Origin: a virus
Taxonomy: Duplodnaviria > Heunggongvirae > Uroviricota > Caudoviricetes
IMG/VR virus record: IMGVR_UViG_2703718850_000007
DNA length: 26,295 bases
Strand: one strand, 5' to 3'
The notes under the pieces are model-generated. The model worked only from the letters and a program-made list of their open reading frames with translations. It did not search any database and was not told the DNA's origin. Positions 4,441 to 24,980 of this stretch are shown one piece after another. Within the stretch, counting starts at the first letter, position 1, and every line of letters starts with the position of its first letter. Position numbers and translations under genes: made by a program.

Positions 4441-6665
<2,225 letters not shown>

Positions 6666-6685
<20 letters not shown>

Positions 6686-6996
6686 TCTCCCGCATATTGC
6701 CAGCATGGCTTTTAATGAGCCGCTGATGCTTGAACCCGCCTATGCGCGGGTTTTCTTTTGTGCGCTTGCAGGCCAGCTTGGGATCAGCCGCCTGACGGAT
6801 GCGGTGTCCGGCGACAGCCTGACTGCCCAGGAGGCACTCGCGACGCTGGCATTATCCGGTGATGATGACGGACCACGACAGGCCCGCAGTTATCAGGTCA
6901 TGAACGGCATCGCCGTGCTGCCGGTGTCCGGCACGCTGGTCAGCCGGACGCGGGCGCTGCAGCCGTACTCGGGGATGACCGGTTACAACGGCATTA
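6666..6996 (+). pseudogene. Head protease/scaffold (lambda gpC-like), N-terminal about 110 codons only
   Basis: GTG-initiated VTAELRNLPHIASMAFNEPLMLEPAYARVFF... matches the gpC N-terminus; identity ends at ...GYNGI, where the sequence becomes the reverse complement of the gpA N-terminal fragment. Confidence 0.85.
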
Positions 6997-8478
6997 GACG
7001 GATGCCCCTTTAATGGGGATCACCCGGAACAGCCCATGTTTTTTCGAGCGTTCATACACAATGGTCGGGTCAATCCCGCCAGTATCCCAGCAGATACGGG
7101 ATACCGACATTTCTGCACCATTCCGGCGGGTATAGGTTTTATTGATGGCCTCATCCACACGCAGCAGCGTCTGTTCATCGTCGTGGCGACCCATAATAAT
7201 CTGCCGGTCAATCAGCCAGCTTTCCTCACCCGGCCCCCATCCCCATACGCGCATTTCGTAGCGGTCCAGCTGGGAGTCGATACCGGCGGTCAGGTAAGCC
7301 ACACGGTCAGGAACGGGCGCTGAATAATGCTCTTTCCGCTCCGCCATCACCTCAGCATCCGGACGTTCGCCGATTTTCGCTTCCCATGTCTCACCGAGCG
7401 TGGTGTTCACGAAGGTTTTACGTTTTCCCGTATCCCCTTTCGTCTTCATCCAGTCTTTGACAATCTGCACCCAGGTGGTGAACGGGCTGTACGCCGTCCA
7501 GATGTGAAAGGTCACACTGTCCGGCGGCTCAATCTCTTCACCGGATGACGAAAACCAGAGAATGCCATCACGGGTCCAGATCCCGGTCTTTTCGCAGATA
7601 TAACGGGCATCAGTAAAGTCCAGCTCCTGCTGGCGGATGACGCAGGCATTATGCTCGCAGAGATAAAACACGCTGGAGGGGTCATCCGGCGTCCATTTGA
7701 GGCCAAACGGCGTCTCTTTGTCGCCAAATTTAAGATACTGCTCCTCCCCGCAGTGCGGGCAGGCAACATGAAAACGCATAAAATGCAGGGATTCACTGGC
7801 TGCACGCTCAATCTGGCAGGTGCCTCTCACTTTGGGCGTGGAGCCACGGATGGACTTTGGCCAGACCGAGCCTTCAATACGTTTGTCGCCAAGGAACGTC
7901 GGAGAGCCTTCCTGTTCAATATCCTCATCAAAGGCAGCAAGTTCATCATAACCCGCCACATCCACCGACTTTTCACGGTAGTTTTTTGCCGCTTTACCGC
8001 CCAGGCACCAGAAGCCACGACCATTGGAAAAACGCTTCATAGTGAGCGTGTTATCCCGGTGCTTTTTGCCATACCACGGAGCCAGCGCCAGCAGCGACGG
8101 AATATCGCGGATGGTCGGCTCAACGTGGGTTTTCATAAAGTTCTCGGCATCACCATCCGTCGGCAACCAGATAAGGGTGTTGCGCTGCTTATGCTCTATA
8201 AAGTAGGCATAAACACCCAGCAGCATTTTGGAATAACCGACACGGGCAGACTTCACCACATTCACCTCACGGATGTAGTCGCTGCCCATCGCATTCATGA
8301 TGGCCCGCTGAAAGGGCAGTGTTTCCCAGCGCCCTTCCTGGTATGCGGATTCTTTCGGGAGATAGTAATTAGCATCCGCCCATTCAACGGCGGTCTGTGG
8401 CTCCGGCCTGAACAGTGAGCGAAGCCCGGCGCGGACAAAATGCCGCAGCCTGTTAACCTGACTGTTCGATATATTCAC
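6994..8478 (-). pseudogene. Terminase large subunit (lambda gpA), N-terminal 494 codons, truncated
   Basis: MNISNSQVNRLRHFVRAGLRSLFRPEPQTAVEWADANYYLPKESAYQEGRW... ends at ...IPIKGASV followed by a stop created at the rearrangement junction; it overlaps the Nu1 3' end as in lambda. Confidence 0.9.
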
Positions 8479-8998
8479 TCAGCAACCCCGGTATCAGTTC
8501 ATCCAGCGCGGCTGCTTTGTTCATGGCTTTGATGATATCCCGTTTCAGGAAATCAACATGTCGGTTTTCCAGTTCCGGAAAACGCCGCTGCACCGACAGG
8601 GGGATCCCGTCGAGAATACTGGCAATTTCACCTGCGATCCGCGACAGCACGAAAGTACAGAATGCGGTTTCCACCACTTCAGCGGAGTCTCTGGCATTTT
8701 TCAGCTCCTGTGCGTCGGCCTGCGCACGCGTAAGTCGATGGCGTTCGTACTCAATAGTCCCTGGCTGGAGATCTGTCTCGCTGGCCTGCCGCAGTTCTTC
8801 AACTTCCCGGCGCAGCTTTTCGTTCTCAATTTCAGCATCCCTTTCGGCATACCATCTTATAACGGCGGCAGAGTCATAAAGCACCTCATTACCCTTGCCA
8901 CCGCCTCGCAGAACGGGCATTCCCTGTTCCTGCCAGTTCTGAATGGTACGGATACTCGCACCGAAAATGTCAGCCAGCTGCTTTTTGTTGACTTCCAT
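8453..8998 (-). CDS. nohA: Terminase small subunit (lambda Nu1-like)
   Basis: 181 aa, MEVNKKQLADIFGASIRTIQNWQEQGMPVLRGGGKGNEVLYDSAAVIRWYAERD... with a winged-HTH N-terminus. Confidence 0.95.
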   Translation of the reverse strand: MEVNKKQLADIFGASIRTIQNWQEQGMPVLRGGGKGNEVLYDSAAVIRWYAERDAEIENEKLRREVEELRQASETDLQPGTIEYERHRLTRAQADAQELKNARDSAEVVETAFCTFVLSRIAGEIASILDGIPLSVQRRFPELENRHVDFLKRDIIKAMNKAAALDELIPGLLSEYIEQSG

Positions 8999-17749: not shown

Positions 17750-19608
17750 CATTTCTGATAGTTAACATTACAAGATATAAGTAATGGACGCACTCCCAAT
17801 TAGTCTATTTAAATCGCCACGAGTTTAACTGACAACCCATGATCAATTATGAATTGCAACTATTTCTGTAGTCACTTTTGTGGGGACAGTCCACAAAACT
17901 GCCAACTTCCGCTTCTTGCTCTTAGCGGACATTAGCATAGGCTATTTACCATAACGCCTCATTACGCGCACCGCCCAGACTGACTCAGCGCGTTTCTGGC
18001 ATATCCCCGGTAAAACAAGTAACAAACCACCCGAAAATGAACACCAGAAACGCGACTTAAGAATCTACCCTATGAATGGATATGCACTCAACCGAATCGA
18101 TCTTGGTTTCAATCTTTTTTATCGGGATCAGGCTTCTTTTTAGGTAACTTCGGGGGCTTAACTTGCTGATGACTTTGCGTTCGGCGCGTAAGCCAGGGAT
18201 GGTCAGCTTTAGGTTTAACATAGTATTTTGAGCGTAAATCAATACGGGCATTATCCACTCGTTCATGGACACTCTTTTCATCATCCAGTGGTATAGGCTC
18301 CGGGCCATCAACATACTTTTCCCAGCCCAGCGCTTTCCCGTCATACAGAACGTTAATTTCACCGTCAAAGTTCTCGCATACAGTAACAACAGAATGCCTA
18401 AGTCGATATCCCCGGCCCTCACTGCGTACCTGAAACGCACTGCTTTTGTACTGGAAAGTGAGATTTTTAGACAGAACGCGCTTCGCCTGTAGGCTGAAGA
18501 TATAACCCAGTTCCTCTTCAGAATGGTGCACATCAAGATGAGCATTATCAGTAGTACGAGGCGACGTAGCGAACCGGTTGTTATAGGCTTCAATAAAGGT
18601 CGGCAACCATGCATTTGCTGTTTCAATATCACTGATATTCTGAAGCCGCATTTCTTTGACCAGCCTGTCCTGTAGTGTCTGATTGGCGCGCTCTACCCGC
18701 CCTTTTGCCTGCGGGCTGTTGGCATGGATTGGCTCGATGCCCAGTGTCTTTATCGCACGAGTGAACTGGGTCAGCTCACCTTCCCGCTCTGGGTTATTTA
18801 CCCTGAATATACTGTGTCTATCAGAGTAGAGAGCGAGCGGTACGCCATGATCATTAAGGTAACCCCGGAGGGTTTCCATGTAAGCCCGGGTTGTTTCAGC
18901 AGGCACAAAACGCAACGCCATCAACGCACTGGTGGCATCATCAATGAAAACGATCAGTGTACATCTGGGGCCTCGATTTTCAAACCAGTCATGAGGTGAG
19001 CCATCAATCTGGATCAGTTCACCGTAAGATGGTCGTCGCATGCGGCGTTGATATATACGGGCAATTTTACGACGGCGTTCACGCCATAACCCCTCTTCTA
19101 TCATCCACTTTCTGAGAGTTTCAACGGATAAAGATAAACCGTGTATCTCGCGCAATTTTTCGCACGCAAACGTAGGTCCAAAATCAGCGTAACGGCCTTT
19201 GAGGAGTGAAATTACTGTTGCTCTGAATTCAGTAGAAAAGGAATTATTAGGACGCTTTCCACGTCGGTGGGAAACCAGACCAGAAGGCCCTTCATTTCTA
19301 TACCGTTGCACCAGACGTTTAACCTGCCGAATAGAAATGCCAATGCGTGCCGCAGCTTGTTCCTGAATAATCTGAAGTCGGTGGAGTTCCTTATGACTCA
19401 TCGTAACAGTCTCTTTGATCATGAAAAATCCCCCAGAGAATTGTCTGGGGACATTTTAGAATGGTTCAAAGGGGACATTACAGCTTGGTGTTAACAATAG
19501 CCTGCTTCTCCGTGCCTTTCGGCACGTAAGAGGCTAACCTACATGTGTCTAGCATGAAATTGGCCTCAGATTAATGTTAAGCGTCTTGCAGGACGCGTAA
19601 TGTTAACT
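17750..19608. mobile_element. Insertion sequence carrying the single transposase gene; ends approximate
   Basis: A 12-bp perfect inverted repeat, AGTTAACATTAC (17750-17761) against GTAATGTTAACT (19597-19608), brackets the transposase gene. No target-site duplication was recognised, so the true termini are uncertain. Confidence 0.3.
18109..19422 (-). CDS. DDE transposase (rve integrase-core type, single-ORF IS; IS481/ISNCY-like, family not resolved)
   Basis: 437 aa; N-terminal HTH; DDE triad context IQIDGSPHDWF / LIVFIDDATS / PQAKGRVERANQTLQDRL; Lys/Pro-rich C-terminal tail. A 7-bp stem-loop (19431-19450) sits immediately upstream of the start codon. Confidence 0.85.
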   Translation of the reverse strand: MIKETVTMSHKELHRLQIIQEQAAARIGISIRQVKRLVQRYRNEGPSGLVSHRRGKRPNNSFSTEFRATVISLLKGRYADFGPTFACEKLREIHGLSLSVETLRKWMIEEGLWRERRRKIARIYQRRMRRPSYGELIQIDGSPHDWFENRGPRCTLIVFIDDATSALMALRFVPAETTRAYMETLRGYLNDHGVPLALYSDRHSIFRVNNPEREGELTQFTRAIKTLGIEPIHANSPQAKGRVERANQTLQDRLVKEMRLQNISDIETANAWLPTFIEAYNNRFATSPRTTDNAHLDVHHSEEELGYIFSLQAKRVLSKNLTFQYKSSAFQVRSEGRGYRLRHSVVTVCENFDGEINVLYDGKALGWEKYVDGPEPIPLDDEKSVHERVDNARIDLRSKYYVKPKADHPWLTRRTQSHQQVKPPKLPKKKPDPDKKD

Positions 19609-19756
19609 GGGGCTTTTCTCTATCTGCCGTTGGTGTCCATGCCCGAGGCAGATAGCCTCAAGCACCCGCAGTCATTCTACTTAACTAAGATTTCCCCGCA
19701 AACCGTTTTTGTCCAGCACAGTAAATATCCAACTAAACCAATGGAGTTCGCTGTAT

Positions 19757-19936
19757 TTACCGCCAGTATTCAATGCACATGACCGCCATGAACACCCCTA
19801 AAAAAAGGGCATTTATATATCCAAATATTAATATCAAAACATCAACTTTTTCCATATACCTTGCTGTGAAGATGATGGGCATACATGATGCGAACAACCA
19901 GAACGCAACAAACAAAAACTGCAATGCGTTTTTCAT
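19757..19936 (-). CDS. Hypothetical small two-TM membrane protein (59 aa)
   Basis: MKNALQFLFVAFWLFASCMPIIFTARYMEKVDVLILIFGYINALFLGVFMAVMCIEYWR; near-consensus RBS AGGAGG 5 nt upstream of the ATG; no family recognised. Confidence 0.5.
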   Translation of the reverse strand: MKNALQFLFVAFWLFASCMPIIFTARYMEKVDVLILIFGYINALFLGVFMAVMCIEYWR

Positions 19937-20190
19937 TATTCCTCCTACAATCAATGTGCAATTACATTTAAACACACCTCAATTTGGCCGGACATATAAA
20001 TATCTAAACCAGAAAAAATCACTTACATAGCGTTACAAACTCTTTAGTCTAAAGGTTCATCGTAAAACATTCCCCATACTTATCAGTCCGTTCCGCGCCA
20101 GGTAGCTCATTGCCTTATCTGGCAACCTGTAATCAGGTTTCCGCTTTTTCAGTTGGCTGGTCGTTTAACCGACATAGTTAATCCATTAAT

Positions 20191-20478: not shown

Positions 20479-20614
20479 TCATCGCCCCACTCATCACAAT
20501 ATGCTTCGACCGGAGTTTTTCCCGCTTCATAGTCATCACGCTAGGATTCGACATCAGCAGCACTTCCACCGCGTAACTCACCATACCCCAGCGTTAAGGG
20601 GAAATGAGGTCAGC

Positions 20615-20770
20615 ATGGATACTATCGATCTTGGCAACAACGAATCTCTGGTGTACGGCGTGTTTCCAAACCAGGACGGCACGTTCACCGCAATGACGTA
20701 TACCAAAAGCAAAACGTTTAAAACCGAAAATGGTGCCCGTCGCTGGCTGGAAAGAAACTCAGGTGAGTGA
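20615..20770 (+). CDS. ydfA: YdfA, first gene of the dicB operon
   Basis: 51 aa, MDTIDLGNNESLVYGVFPNQDGTFTAMTYTKSKTFKTENGARRWLERNSGE; GAGGT RBS. Confidence 0.8.
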   Translation: MDTIDLGNNESLVYGVFPNQDGTFTAMTYTKSKTFKTENGARRWLERNSGE

Positions 20771-20771
20771 T

Positions 20772-20900
20772 ATGGATTTCGACACAATCATGGAAAAGGC
20801 TTACGAAGAATACTTCGAAGGCCTTGCCGAAGGCGAAGAAGCTCTCAGCTTCAGTGAGTTTAAACAGGCGCTTTCCAGTTCGGCAAAATCTAACGGCTGA
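20772..20900 (+). CDS. ydfB: YdfB small acidic protein
   Basis: Hand-translated 42 aa, MDFDTIMEKAYEEYFEGLAEGEEALSFSEFKQALSSSAKSNG, starting 1 nt after the ydfA stop. Confidence 0.75.
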   Translation: MDFDTIMEKAYEEYFEGLAEGEEALSFSEFKQALSSSAKSNG

Positions 20901-20929
20901 TAAGCGAAACAGCACCGCGAGGAATCAGT

Positions 20930-21148
20930 ATGCAGAAACGAGAACCCGTCATCATCGCGCCAGACTATACCGATGATGAACTTTATGAGTGGATGCGCCA
21001 GAAAATTAATGCAGCGCAGGATCTGAAATGGGCTAATGAAGCCAGGGCTAAGCAGGCTGAAAATCTGTCCGCTCTGGAGCAGGATATCACCAATCTGGAA
21101 AAAGCAGCGGCATTAAGCATTGCCAGAATGATTACATACCCGCGTTAG
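20930..21148 (+). CDS. ydfC: YdfC
   Basis: 72 aa, MQKREPVIIAPDYTDDELYEWMRQKINAAQDLKWANEARAKQAENLSALEQDITNLEKAAA...; GAGG RBS. Confidence 0.75.
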   Translation: MQKREPVIIAPDYTDDELYEWMRQKINAAQDLKWANEARAKQAENLSALEQDITNLEKAAALSIARMITYPR

Positions 21149-21488
21149 TAGCTAATCAACAAAGCTAAGGTTAGTAATTAAGGAGTTCTCCACGGGTGAG
21201 GTGGAGTGCGTGCGCCGGACACGGGTGCGCATCCGGAACTGACAGTTTACTGAAAGGATATTTCCCTGAAAAGTCAGACCATAACGCGAAAGCGCACGGC
21301 GAGGTAGCTGGTTCATAGATAGCCTGTCGTTAAATTTTCGTCGACCGTGCGCTTCCGGTTGTGGCAACCCGCGAAATGGCGCGGCGGTAAGTATGGCGGG
21401 GTTATTCCTTCCCCGTTGAGGACACCGGGTTGTCAGGTTGACCATACGCTTAAGTGACAACCCCGCTGCAACGCCCTCTGTTATCAAT

Positions 21489-21541
21489 TTTCTGGTGACG
21501 TTTGGCGGTATCAGTTTTACTCCGTGACTGCTCTGCCGCCC
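21489..21541 (+). ncRNA. dicF: DicF small RNA (Hfq-dependent; targets ftsZ, xylR, pykA and manX mRNAs)
   Basis: TTTCTGGTGACGTTTGGCGGTATCAGTTTTACTCCGTGACTGCTCTGCCGCCC followed by TTTTT matches the 53-nt DicF sequence as I remember it; a long structured precursor region (21150-21488) precedes it. Confidence 0.9.
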
Positions 21542-21715
21542 TTTTTAAAGTGAATTTTGTGATGTGGTGAATGCGGCTGAGCGCACGCGGAACAGTTAAA
21601 ACCAAAAACAGTGTTATGGGTGGATTCTCTGTATCCGGCGTTAATTGTTAACTGGTTAACGTCACCTGGAGGCACCAGGCACTGCATCACAAAATTCATT
21701 GTTGAGGACGCGATA

Positions 21716-21904
21716 ATGAAAACGTTATTACCAAACGTTAATACGTCTGAAGGTTGTTTTGAAATTGGTGTCACTATCAGTAACCCAGTATTTACTGAAG
21801 ATGCCATTAACAAGAGAAAACAAGAACGGGAGCTATTAAATAAAATATGCATTGTTTCAATGCTGGCTCGTTTACGTCTGATGCCAAAAGGATGTGCACA
21901 ATGA
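21716..21904 (+). CDS. dicB: DicB cell-division inhibitor (MinC-dependent FtsZ-ring inhibitor)
   Basis: 62 aa, MKTLLPNVNTSEGCFEIGVTISNPVFTEDAINKRKQERELLNKICIVSMLARLRLMPKGCAQ; GAGGA RBS. Confidence 0.85.
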   Translation: MKTLLPNVNTSEGCFEIGVTISNPVFTEDAINKRKQERELLNKICIVSMLARLRLMPKGCAQ

Positions 21905-22092
21905 ATTCAGCATTTGTGCTTGTTCTGACAGTTTTTCTTGTTTCCGGAGAGCCAGTTGATATTGCAGTCAGTGTTCACAGGACAATGCAGGAGTGTATGA
22001 CTGCAGCAACCGAACAGAAAATTCCCGGTAACTGTTACCCGGTCGATAAAGTTATTCACCAGGATAATATCGAAATCCCGGCAGGTCTTTAA
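21901..22092 (+). CDS. ydfD: YdfD small membrane/lysis protein
   Basis: 63 aa, MNSAFVLVLTVFLVSGEPVDIAVSVHRTMQECMTAATEQKIPGNCYPVDKV...; start overlaps the dicB stop (ATGA); N-terminal hydrophobic segment. Confidence 0.7.
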   Translation: MNSAFVLVLTVFLVSGEPVDIAVSVHRTMQECMTAATEQKIPGNCYPVDKVIHQDNIEIPAGL

Positions 22093-22184
22093 AACAGTTC
22101 CGTAATAAATATCCGGTTTCATTCTTATATGCCAGCAATGGCAGGGATTTGTTCATCCTTAAATCTGTCATGAGGTTAAAACAA

Positions 22185-24656
22185 ATGAGTAAAGTCTTTA
22201 TTTGCGCCGCTATTCCTGACGAACTGGCAACAAGGGAAGAAGGCGCTGTGGCTGTAGCCACAGCCATTGAAGCTGGCGACGAACGCCGTGCTCGAGCAAA
22301 ATTTCACTGGCAATTCCTGGAACATTATCCGGCTGCTCAGGACTGCGCTTATAAATTTATTGTCTGCGAGGATAAACCTGGCATACCCCGCCCTGCCCTC
22401 GATTCATGGGATGCTGAATATATGCAGGAAAACCGCTGGGATGAGGAGTCTGCTTCTTTTGTCCCGGTTGAGACTGAATCCGATCCGATGAACGTCACTT
22501 TTGACAAGCTGGCCCCTGAAGTACAGAACGCTGTCATGGTTAAGTTCGACACATGTGAAAACATCACCGTTGATATGGTTATTAGCGCACAGGAATTGTT
22601 GCAGGAAGACATGGCAACATTCGACGGACATATCGTTGAAGCGTTGATGAAAATGCCAGAAGTTAACGCCATGTATCCGGAGCTTAAGTTGCACGCCATT
22701 GGGTGGGTTAAGCATAAATGTATTCCTGGTGCTAAATGGCCCGAAATTCAGGCAGAGATGCGCATCTGGAAAAAACGTCGCGAAGGTGAACGCAAGGAAA
22801 CCGGAAAATACACGTCTGTTGTTGATCTCGCCCGCGCCAGAGCCAATCAACAGTACACTGAAAATTCAACAGGAAAAATCAGCCCGGTCATTGCTGCCAT
22901 TCATCGCGAATACAAGCAGACATGGAAAACACTGGATGACGAACTGGCCTACGCTCTCTGGCCTAGTGATGTGGATGCCGGAAACATTGACGGCAGCATC
23001 CATCGCTGGGCAAAAAAAGAAGTTATCGACAACGACCGCGAAGACTGGAAGCGTATCTCGGCATCAATGCGCAAACAGCCTGATGCCCTTCGCTACGACC
23101 GCCAAACTATTTTTGGCCTTGTCCGTGAGCGTCCGATCGACATTCACAAAGATCCCGTAGCACTGAACAAATATATCTGCGAATACCTGACGACAAAGGG
23201 CGTGTTTGAGAATGAAGAAACAGACCTGGGCACTGTTGATGTTCTCCAGTCATCAGAAACACAAACTGATGCAGTGGAAACTGAGGTATCTGATATCCCA
23301 AAAAATGAAACCGCGCCGGAAGCTGAACCATCTGTAGAGCGTGAGGGGCCGTTCTATTTCCTCTTCGCAGATAAGGACGGAGAAAAATACGGTCGCGCAA
23401 ACAAACTCTCTGGTCTGGATAAGGCACTGGCTGCTGGCGCCACTGAAATCACAAAAGAAGAATATTTTGCCCGAAAAAATGGCACATACACGGGCTTACC
23501 GCAAAATGTAGATACCGCTGAAGATTCAGAACAACCAGAGCCGATAAAAGTTACCGCTGACGAAGTAAACAAAATTATGCAGGCAGCCAATATCAGCCAG
23601 CCTGACGCCGATAAGTTGCTTGCTGCATCACGTGGTGAATTTGTTGAAGGGATTAGTGACCCGAATGATCCGAAATGGGTTAAGGGGCTCCAGACCCGCG
23701 ATTCTGTGAACCAGAACCAGCATGAACCGGAACGGAACTACCAAAAAGCGGAACAAAACAGTCCAAATGCGTTACAAAACGAGCCAGAAACGAAACAGCC
23801 TGAACCAGTAGCGCAACAGGAAGTGGAAAAAGTCTGCACCGCCTGCGGTCAGACCGGCGGCGGCAACTGCCCTGATTGTGGCGCGGTGATGGGCGACGCA
23901 ACATACCAAGAAACATTCGATGAAGAGTATCAGGTTGAAGTTCAGGAAGATGATCCGGAGGAAATGGAAGGCGCTGAACATCCACACAAGGAGAACACTG
24001 GCGGCAATCAGCATCACAATAGCGATAATGAAACTGGCGAGACGGCAGATCACCCAATTAAGGTGAACGGTCATCACGAAATCACATCCACCAGCAGGAC
24101 GTGTGACCATCTAATGATCGACCTTGAAACCATGGGAAAAAATCCTGATGCCCCGATCATCTCAATAGGTGCAATATTTTTCGATCCGCAAACCGGAGAT
24201 ATGGGACCGGAATTTAGTAAGACTATCGATCTGGAAACTGCTGGCGGAGTCATTGATCGGGACACCATTAAATGGTGGCTTAAGCAATCACGCGAAGCGC
24301 AATCTGCCATTATGACCGATGAAATCCCGTTAGATGATGCACTGTTACAATTGCGAGAATTTATCGACGAAAACTCCGGTGAATTTTTTGTTCAGGTTTG
24401 GGGAAATGGAGCCAACTTCGACAACACGATTTTGCGCCGTTCATACGAACGGCAGGGGATCCCCTGCCCGTGGCGTTACTACAACGATCGCGATGTACGC
24501 ACAATCGTTGAGCTGGGGAAAGCCATAGACTTCGATGCCAGAACGGCTATTCCATTCGAAGGTGAGCGCCATAATGCACTTGATGACGCCCGTTACCAGG
24601 CAAAATACGTTTCAGTTATCTGGCAAAAACTGATCCCGAGTCAGGCTGATTCTTAA
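22185..24656 (+). CDS. RecE-like exodeoxyribonuclease VIII homolog with a C-terminal DnaQ-like (DEDDh) 3'-5' exonuclease domain
   Basis: 823 aa from the ATG at 22185 (GAGGT RBS). Its central region matches the RecE linker including the zinc ribbon CTACGQTGGGNCPDCGAVMGDATYQETF; the C-terminus carries DEDDh motifs MIDLET / NGANFD / HNALDDA. Confidence 0.85.
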   Translation: MSKVFICAAIPDELATREEGAVAVATAIEAGDERRARAKFHWQFLEHYPAAQDCAYKFIVCEDKPGIPRPALDSWDAEYMQENRWDEESASFVPVETESDPMNVTFDKLAPEVQNAVMVKFDTCENITVDMVISAQELLQEDMATFDGHIVEALMKMPEVNAMYPELKLHAIGWVKHKCIPGAKWPEIQAEMRIWKKRREGERKETGKYTSVVDLARARANQQYTENSTGKISPVIAAIHREYKQTWKTLDDELAYALWPSDVDAGNIDGSIHRWAKKEVIDNDREDWKRISASMRKQPDALRYDRQTIFGLVRERPIDIHKDPVALNKYICEYLTTKGVFENEETDLGTVDVLQSSETQTDAVETEVSDIPKNETAPEAEPSVEREGPFYFLFADKDGEKYGRANKLSGLDKALAAGATEITKEEYFARKNGTYTGLPQNVDTAEDSEQPEPIKVTADEVNKIMQAANISQPDADKLLAASRGEFVEGISDPNDPKWVKGLQTRDSVNQNQHEPERNYQKAEQNSPNALQNEPETKQPEPVAQQEVEKVCTACGQTGGGNCPDCGAVMGDATYQETFDEEYQVEVQEDDPEEMEGAEHPHKENTGGNQHHNSDNETGETADHPIKVNGHHEITSTSRTCDHLMIDLETMGKNPDAPIISIGAIFFDPQTGDMGPEFSKTIDLETAGGVIDRDTIKWWLKQSREAQSAIMTDEIPLDDALLQLREFIDENSGEFFVQVWGNGANFDNTILRRSYERQGIPCPWRYYNDRDVRTIVELGKAIDFDARTAIPFEGERHNALDDARYQAKYVSVIWQKLIPSQADS

Positions 24657-24728: not shown

Positions 24729-24980
24729 ATGAGCGAAGTAATCATGATTGTCTCTCCCGGCAAATGGGTATCCGAAGAGCAGTTAATTGCGCTGAAAGGA
24801 ATAAAAAAAGGTACGTTAAAAAAGGCCCGGGAAAAATCGTTTATGGAAGGAAGGGAATATAAGCATGTCGCTCATGACGGTATGCCATGGGATAACAGTC
24901 CATGCTTTTACAACCTGGAAGAAATTGATCGCTGGATTGAGCGCCAGGCATCAGCGAGACCAAGACGTCATCTTACTTGA
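24729..24980 (+). CDS. Excisionase-like small DNA-binding protein (putative Xis)
   Basis: 83-aa ORF immediately upstream of the integrase on the same strand; function assigned by context only. Confidence 0.55.
   Translation: MSEVIMIVSPGKWVSEEQLIALKGIKKGTLKKAREKSFMEGREYKHVAHDGMPWDNSPCFYNLEEIDRWIERQASARPRRHLT

Follow-up and report, generated by a model that had tools for sequence, protein, structure and literature searches.

The stretch analysed here (the window) is a 26,295-nucleotide viral record, IMGVR_UViG_2703718850_000007. It is a Qin-type lambdoid prophage of Escherichia coli, 99.97–99.98% identical to the rspB-adjoining prophage of strain N61 apart from one 3262-bp deletion. Open reading frame (ORF) analysis identified an intact 823-residue coding sequence with its stop codon at positions 22185–24656 on the forward strand, and a GAGG sequence lies at 22172–22175, 9 nt 5′ of its ATG. 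The cq9 and N61 annotations produced by the Prokaryotic Genome Annotation Pipeline (PGAP) contain the identical protein at exactly matching coordinates (WP_000048342.1, named 'exonuclease' or '3′-5′ exonuclease'). A longer ORF beginning at a TTG at 22149 was dropped because the ATG at 22185 has the upstream GAGG and is the start used by PGAP, and a stand-alone exonuclease from an internal start was dropped because the sole nearby methionine, M644, falls within the first β-strand.

Domain analysis showed that this gene joins a scaffold of about 640 residues, related in its central region to RecE of the Rac prophage, to a C-terminal domain of the DEDDh 3′-5′ exonuclease family. The protein features are as follows, in order along the gene.

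22185..22799, forward strand: residues 1–205, N-terminal module of YdfE_N type, an α/β subdomain followed by a helical subdomain, unrelated to the RecE N-terminus
22902..23219, forward strand: residues 240–345, middle helical module of YdfE_C type (PF27432), from the BLAST module map and an AlphaFold2 model with predicted local distance difference test (pLDDT) values >93
23337..23489, forward strand: residues 385–435, small β-hairpin/helix domain (GPFYF...GRANK...EITKEEY), AlphaFold2 pLDDT 92–96
23631..23678, forward strand: residues 483–498, motif RGEFVEGISDPNDPKW, the most conserved stretch of the scaffold
23835..23879, forward strand: residues 551–565, four-cysteine zinc ribbon CTACGQTGGGNCPDC, with CxxC at 551–554 and 562–565
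23883..24107, forward strand: residues 567–641, acidic linker, predicted to be disordered from pLDDT <50 and composition
24108..24623, forward strand: residues 642–813, DEDDh 3′-5′ exonuclease domain of the Rv2179c-like/T4 DexA family, from Pfam, the PDB match 8KEL and alignment with DexA and epsilon34 gp34

Exonuclease domain and scaffold

Residues 642–813 matched the Pfam Rv2179c-like family (PF16473) (E 2.4e-67; 226.5 bits, where 27 is the cut-off), and the match covered positions 2–177 of the 177-position profile. The motifs DLET, NGANFD and HNALDDA were located at residues 646–649, 741–746 and 796–802, and none of the five DEDDh catalytic residues is missing (D646, E648, D746, H796 and D801, with motif III of the H-x4-D form), aligning with D7, E9, D119, H186 and D191 of T4 DexA. 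PD-(D/E)XK families had no Pfam match anywhere in the 823-residue protein. This result bears out the initial annotation, made from the sequence alone, which had read a DEDDh rather than a PD-(D/E)XK nuclease at the C-terminus; the motifs it quoted (DLET, NGANFD, H-x-ALDDA and a CxxC-CxxC ribbon) were all found in the protein.

The sole solved relative recovered by PDB sequence search was 8KEL, an 'Exodeoxyribonuclease' of 227 residues (E 1.5e-6), and the founding Pfam member, Rv2179c, was not retrieved in that search. The T4 dexA product is also 227 residues long, and the family has been identified in a 2025 Nucleic Acids Research paper on T4 DexA, in which T4 DexA and E. coli EcD, the characterised relatives, are both DNases (PMC12153337). 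Judged by the sequence of the exonuclease domain, these two enzymes are the closest characterised relatives of the window protein, whose C-terminal domain is a predicted 3′-5′ exonuclease.

Ahead of this domain, residues 262–627 aligned with residues 278–592 of K-12 RecE (BLASTP, E 6e-61), with approximately 85% identity over residues 465–600 including the four-cysteine ribbon. The similarity stops within the acidic linker, at a break-point near residue 627 that lies just ahead of the PD-(D/E)XK nuclease domain of RecE. Residues 1–235 had no BLAST similarity to RecE 1–270, and Exonuc_VIII (PF06630) had no Pfam match in the window protein. The RecE likeness initially claimed for both the N-terminal and central regions was consequently upheld for the central region and its zinc ribbon, and given up for residues 1–235, which are of YdfE_N and not Exonuc_VIII type. 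The NCBIfam RecE equivalog NF007259 gave 280.3 bits over residues 246–623 only, against a cut-off of 1269 bits and a score of 1830 bits for K-12 RecE, and PHROG 2082 matched over the full length (positions 1–822 of 823, 1825 bits). Assignment of the window protein to YdfE_N (PF27430) and YdfE_C (PF27432) was made through the precomputed matches of its relatives, namely the 94%-identical representative P0001 and 119 others.

The scaffold modules differ in their conservation. The YdfE_C-type middle module is distantly related to RecE 271–400 (approximately 25% identity), and the domain at residues 385–435 is an optional module of the family that is 42–69% identical in many relatives with other effector domains. 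The motif RGEFVEGISDPNDPKW is 75–90% identical in relatives whose other modules are 25–35% identical, is also present in RecE, and is a candidate docking motif for a conserved partner. The zinc-ribbon motif likewise occurs in RecE and its four cysteines are retained in every relative having the module; AlphaFold2 confidence for the ribbon was moderate only.

A common scaffold with alternative C-termini

A first homologue search returned E. coli alleles only, at 88–94% identity, and the diversity of the family came from a search of residues 1–640 against 1.84 billion cluster representatives, which gave only 247 matches. Exact-pattern scans of species-representative genomes placed close relatives in Escherichia- or Shigella-titled records and, beyond these, in just two metagenome bins of other assignment. 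A module map drawn by BLAST on 48 long family representatives resolved two alternative N-termini (YdfE_N and the Exonuc_VIII of Rac), the middle module, three optional short modules and four alternative C-termini, which are the DEDDh domain, a PD-(D/E)XK domain (Pfam DUF3799), a domain designated T3 and a short non-enzymatic tail. Every type of C-terminus was found with both N-terminal types among these representatives. PF12684 is matched by PD-(D/E)XK relatives, P0131 and P0240 among them, and the short-tail proteins are probably the 'RecE-2' proteins described previously (PMC12315714).

Swapping of effectors on this scaffold is seen directly in P0128 (locus L007, 8001–10418), a natural chimera in which residues 1–400 are 94–99% identical to Rac RecE and the DEDDh domain is 98% identical to that of the window protein. 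Its setting is Rac-like (sieB-kilR-ydaE), but xis-int comes next and recT is missing. The chimera is direct evidence that recombination within the shared linker brings about the effector swap.

The T3 domain had no Pfam match, and PDB sequence and profile searches gave noise only. Comparison with epsilon34 gp36 by hhalign returned a probability of 0.09 with the signature helix aligned, and the AlphaFold2 model of T3 (pLDDT 83) matched human RAD52 in Foldseek with an E value of 4e-7 and a probability of 1.0. As modelled, T3 has a Rad52 fold, which would make the PHROG 2489 proteins scaffold–annealase fusions that carry the name 'exonuclease' by mis-annotation; on this structural evidence they are probably single-strand annealing proteins. 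Members of PHROG 2489 include P0129, P0134, P0136, P0154, P0168 and P0186 among others, are approximately 700–800 residues long, and are encoded for example at L092 5650–7986 and L093 7001–9148.

All C-terminal types occupy one genomic slot, as the gene or genes that close the early-left operon ahead of xis-int. In the PD-(D/E)XK type an overlapping RecT-family gene comes next, and Gam and Sipho_Gp157 are the flanking genes of the Rad52-fusion type. DEDDh fusions were found without annealase, Gam or Abc2 in the window, complete genomes, PhiR42_1 (48.7 kb), 80 IMG/VR contigs and four divergent lineages. No RecT or other annealase gene is present in the window or downstream of it, where int is followed by rspB in complete genomes, and 81 related loci likewise lack a neighbouring recT-family gene. 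The initial observation that xis and int come directly next with no annealase therefore extends to 80 IMG/VR loci and four further lineages, and a recT gene just beyond the window, which might have overturned it, was looked for and none was found. Chi sites number 6 in the 48.7-kb PhiR42_1 and 2 in the window, and are uninformative on RecBCD reliance.

Operon position, prevalence and selection

The gene order around the exonuclease gene, ydfA-ydfB-ydfC-DicF-dicB-ydfD-exonuclease-xis-int, is that of the DicA-controlled early-left (dicBF) operon as in K-12. The neighbouring features are the following.

20615..22092, forward strand: upstream operon genes ydfA, ydfB, ydfC, DicF, dicB and ydfD, from the N61/cq9 annotation transferred by alignment
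21490–21541, forward strand: DicF small RNA between ydfC and dicB, Rfam 76.7 bits
21716–21904, forward strand: dicB
21901–22092, forward strand: ydfD
24729–24980, forward strand: excisionase, Pfam DUF1233
25000/25015 to the window end (26295), forward strand: tyrosine integrase, Pfam Arm-DNA-bind_2 and Phage_integrase

No convincing terminator was found ahead of the exonuclease gene in the dicBF operon stretch, and DicF and the exonuclease gene lie in one transcription unit. The xis-int segment forms the left end of the prophage, with host rspB next to it in complete genomes.

Co-transcription with a processed small RNA bears on whether the enzyme might be a 3′-5′ exoribonuclease, for instance one that shortens DicF or the polycistronic dicBF transcript from the 3′ end or that breaks down host RNAs. 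The Pfam family is named '3′-5′ exoribonuclease Rv2179c-like domain' and many of its members are named '3′-5′ exoribonuclease' by NCBI. Set against these names are the DNase activities of T4 DexA and EcD, the closest characterised relatives, the position of phage homologues next to SSB (single-stranded DNA-binding protein), annealase and Abc2 genes, and the maturation of DicF in K-12, which goes on despite the ydfE pseudogene. We consider a role in RNA processing to be quite improbable.

The 3262-bp deletion of the window prophage lies at 20584/20585 (corresponding to 22287–25548 of L006, from N61), removes replication genes, dicC and dicA, and leaves approximately 30 bp upstream of ydfA. Because dicA, the dicBF repressor, is within the deleted stretch, the operon is without its repressor in the window strain, and the operon promoter has probably been lost as well. 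The prophage is also defective at 4450–8480 and 18109–19422, and the N61 annotation shows terminase, S49 protease and tail-fibre genes that are truncated or rearranged beside pinQ. An ORF of 437 residues encoding an ISNCY-family transposase is present in the window and only partial in the PGAP annotation of N61. Just to the right of this element a sok-like antitoxin RNA was detected at 19496–19667 on the reverse strand (Rfam 104 bits), adjoining a 72-residue ORF (19757–19975, reverse strand) at a position distinct from the annotated hokD locus.

The exonuclease gene is widespread. Among 5426 complete E. coli genomes, 4800 gave matches and 3489 contain at least 80% of the gene, a prevalence that places it among the commonest E. 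coli prophage genes. Of 80 viral contigs, 76 carry it at full length, and the complete phage genome record PhiR42_1 has it too. Pairwise ratios of non-synonymous to synonymous substitution (dN/dS) against diverged alleles were 0.1–0.3 in the folded modules and 0–0.28 in the exonuclease domain, and reading frames and active site are intact in the alleles examined, so that the gene is under purifying selection. These values speak directly to the view that the gene has no function and is left as the relic of a cryptic prophage in decay, a view encouraged by the truncated terminase and protease genes, the insertion element and the deletion of dicA and the operon promoter region in the window, and by a K-12 copy that is a pseudogene. 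Given the low dN/dS, the preserved frame and active site, and the occurrence of the gene in the PhiR42_1 record and in thousands of genomes, a relic is very unlikely.

Synonymous divergence was uneven along the gene. In alleles L078, L082, L086 and L087, dS was approximately 0.02 in the exonuclease domain and approximately 0.5 in residues 351–464, a range of about 30-fold. Such sharp differences between segments reflect mosaic exchange through frequent intragenic recombination, and indicate that the exonuclease-xis-int end has recently spread.

Proposed function and known systems

The scaffold and genomic slot held in common with other family members, together with two precedents, make a DNA-end-processing exonuclease the most economical reading of this gene. 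In E. coli in vivo cloning (iVEC), XthA resects 3′ ends, and the 5′ overhangs so produced anneal and undergo fill-in with no need for recA or recET (PMC6379578); with vaccinia polymerase it is the proofreading exonuclease that likewise drives the joining of duplexes (PMC1802553). Furthermore, full-length RecE, and not its nuclease domain alone, raises linear-linear recombination (PMC11611040), which suggests that the scaffold matters for DNA-end reactions. We give roughly an even chance to the proposal that the window protein is a phage early 3′-5′ exonuclease acting on DNA ends, delivered by the RecE/YdfE scaffold and working without a phage annealase.

As part of a PL-type, DicA-repressed early operon, the gene would be expressed after prophage derepression. 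Its non-catalytic scaffold of about 640 residues (YdfE_N, YdfE_C, the small β domain, the 'ISDPNDPKW' motif, the zinc ribbon and the disordered acidic linker) would bring the effector to a site or partner common to RecE and the scaffold–Rad52 fusions, namely the ends of linear DNA or intermediates of replication and recombination. There the DexA/Rv2179c-type DEDDh domain, in place of the PD-(D/E)XK domain of RecE, would take nucleotides off 3′ ends, and we infer that its substrate is DNA rather than RNA. In one outcome 5′ overhangs would be exposed, annealed and filled in by host polymerase; in the other, 3′ tails and flaps would be trimmed. Either outcome in recombination or repair would be feasible without a phage annealase.

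The initial annotation had reasoned that a 3′-5′ exonuclease cannot generate 3′ overhangs for annealing and that a recombination role is therefore doubtful. The first part of this argument stands, as no 3′ overhangs would be made. The doubt does not follow from it, because 5′ overhangs also anneal, because other proteins join the same scaffold to a RecT-partnered nuclease or a Rad52-fold annealase, and because stand-alone homologues occur in P22-like Rec modules, where they have been accepted as legitimate members (PMC12315714). Of the alternatives it had put forward, a nucleic-acid processing role other than recombination may apply, and a counter-defence role gained no support.

Several points weigh against a DNA-end-processing function. 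Rv2179c is described as an exoribonuclease, and the N-terminal modules gave no fold match indicating DNA or partner binding. The Rec-module context of the stand-alone homologues is not directly transferable to the fusions, because all DEDDh fusions lack an annealase, unlike the stand-alone genes. The same survey that accepts the P22-like nucleases did not count 'sporadic' DnaQ-type genes beside int as Rec-module genes, and it notes that 3′-5′ exonucleases acting on single-stranded DNA usually lower recombination in E. coli (PMC12315714). In addition, a defence phenotype has been demonstrated for an E. coli homologue that stands alone (PMC12153337).

This last point leads to the main rival explanation, a prophage-encoded anti-phage nuclease of HREX type that, as EcD does, would digest the 5-hydroxymethylcytosine (5hmC) DNA of invading T-even phages and leave unmodified host DNA intact. 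T4 DexA is a member of the DEDDh family to which the exonuclease domain belongs, and defence genes are common on prophages. When carried on a plasmid, EcD (HAK9828821.1) guards E. coli against T4; the enzyme digests T4 DNA and not unmodified double-stranded DNA, and Escherichia is the commonest genus among bacterial DexA homologues (PMC12153337). However, the residues proposed to recognise 5hmC are not kept in the window protein according to a MAFFT alignment at 28% identity, where DexA W152 corresponds to Y766 and D169 to T787; epsilon34 gp34 keeps both the tryptophan and the aspartate. The tetramer-forming aspartate of DexA, D90, whose loss makes EcD dimeric (A78 in EcD; PMC12153337), is retained as Asp717 in the window protein. 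EcD is also short and stand-alone, whereas the window protein has a 640-residue scaffold common to recombination proteins, and its gene lies in a repressed early-left operon and not in a lysogen-expressed moron position. PADLOC returned one weak generic match to a CRISPR-associated DEDDh protein (E 2e-5). Taken together, we judge a defence function of this kind to be unlikely.

Alternatively, the protein could serve as an offensive or housekeeping phage nuclease outside recombination, either breaking host DNA down to nucleotides, as DexA classically does, or destroying a nucleic acid or signal of host defence, for example retron msDNA (multicopy single-stranded DNA), oligonucleotide messengers or primers. 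DEDDh enzymes act on many small nucleic-acid substrates, and the gene shares its operon with the host-takeover genes dicB, DicF and ydfD; T4 DexA itself scavenges host DNA (PMC12153337). No sequence feature indicates a specific defence target, and a scaffold common to an annealase and to RecT-partnered nucleases argues for action at recombination or replication intermediates instead. To our knowledge, temperate lambdoid phages do not degrade the host chromosome. An offensive function of either kind therefore appears improbable.

Beyond DNA-end processing by this one protein, the YdfE/RecE scaffold could be a general delivery platform that docks on a conserved host or DNA-end partner, perhaps via ISDPNDPKW, and presents a 5′-3′ nuclease, a 3′-5′ nuclease or a Rad52-type annealase. 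The DEDDh version would then be a single-protein, annealase-independent counterpart of RecET with reversed polarity and, in the manner of XthA and poxvirus polymerase, would use 5′ overhangs to join or repair linear phage DNA. This wider model is speculative, and we think it unlikely to hold in full.

The architecture itself is already catalogued in the Pfam families YdfE_N, YdfE_C and Rv2179c-like, in PHROG 2082 and in NCBI protein names, and DnaQ-type nucleases in lambdoid phages have been published. Our literature search found nothing on Rv2179c-type domains in prophages or on the ydfE/Qin exonuclease, and we found no description of this very common protein as a RecE-scaffold chimera, of the RecE/YdfE scaffold also carrying a Rad52-type annealase, or of the DEDDh version as consistently annealase-free. 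The role of the N-terminal part of RecE, of approximately 590 residues, is a decades-old question, and linear-linear recombineering is built on the full-length protein (PMC11611040). Nucleases of both polarities, and an annealase, are found on this one scaffold, which makes its role testable on its own. Annealase-free end joining, if true, would make a compact recombineering tool possible; if the protein were a defence nuclease instead, HREX would extend to a very widespread protein.

In comparison with characterised exonucleases, the window domain is of the same DEDDh family as T4 DexA, with 28% identity in the alignment and all five catalytic residues kept, but DexA and EcD are stand-alone proteins of approximately 180–227 residues, whereas the window domain is fused to a scaffold of about 640. 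Mycobacterium tuberculosis Rv2179c, the founding member of PF16473, has the same DEDDh fold family and differs from the window fusion as a stand-alone cellular protein described as an exoribonuclease. Much closer is the P22-like DnaQ-like exonuclease represented by epsilon34 gp34 and Bas106_0031, which is 56–58% identical to residues 641–816, matches the same Pfam family (E 2e-73) and lies, as the window gene does, in a lambdoid early-left operon. This homologue is a stand-alone protein of 182 residues encoded between SSB and Abc2 and beside a Rad52-family annealase, whereas the window fusion is never beside an annealase.

Among proteins with related scaffolds, the PHROG 2489 fusions have the YdfE_N/YdfE_C scaffold and the slot before xis-int in common with the window protein, and differ in a C-terminus predicted to be Rad52-fold and not a nuclease, and in being flanked by Gam and Sipho_Gp157. 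RecE of Rac (exonuclease VIII) resembles the window protein in its central region, the RGEFV.GISDPNDPKW motif, the four-cysteine zinc ribbon, its large size, a disordered acidic linker before the nuclease, and a gene close to xis-int within the early-left operon. The two differ in their N-termini (YdfE_N over 235 residues in the window protein, Exonuc_VIII in RecE), in their nucleases (predicted DEDDh 3′-5′ as against PD-(D/E)XK 5′-3′) and in the lack of a recT partner in the window. K-12 YdfE (b1577), the Qin pseudogene, is the same gene, with its first 255 residues 100% identical, dicB-ydfD upstream and int downstream; IS2E has cut it, and everything past approximately residue 255–306, the exonuclease included, is gone. 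By this sequence comparison the window gene is the intact form of ydfE, a widespread gene that K-12, the model strain, happens to hold as a pseudogene only.

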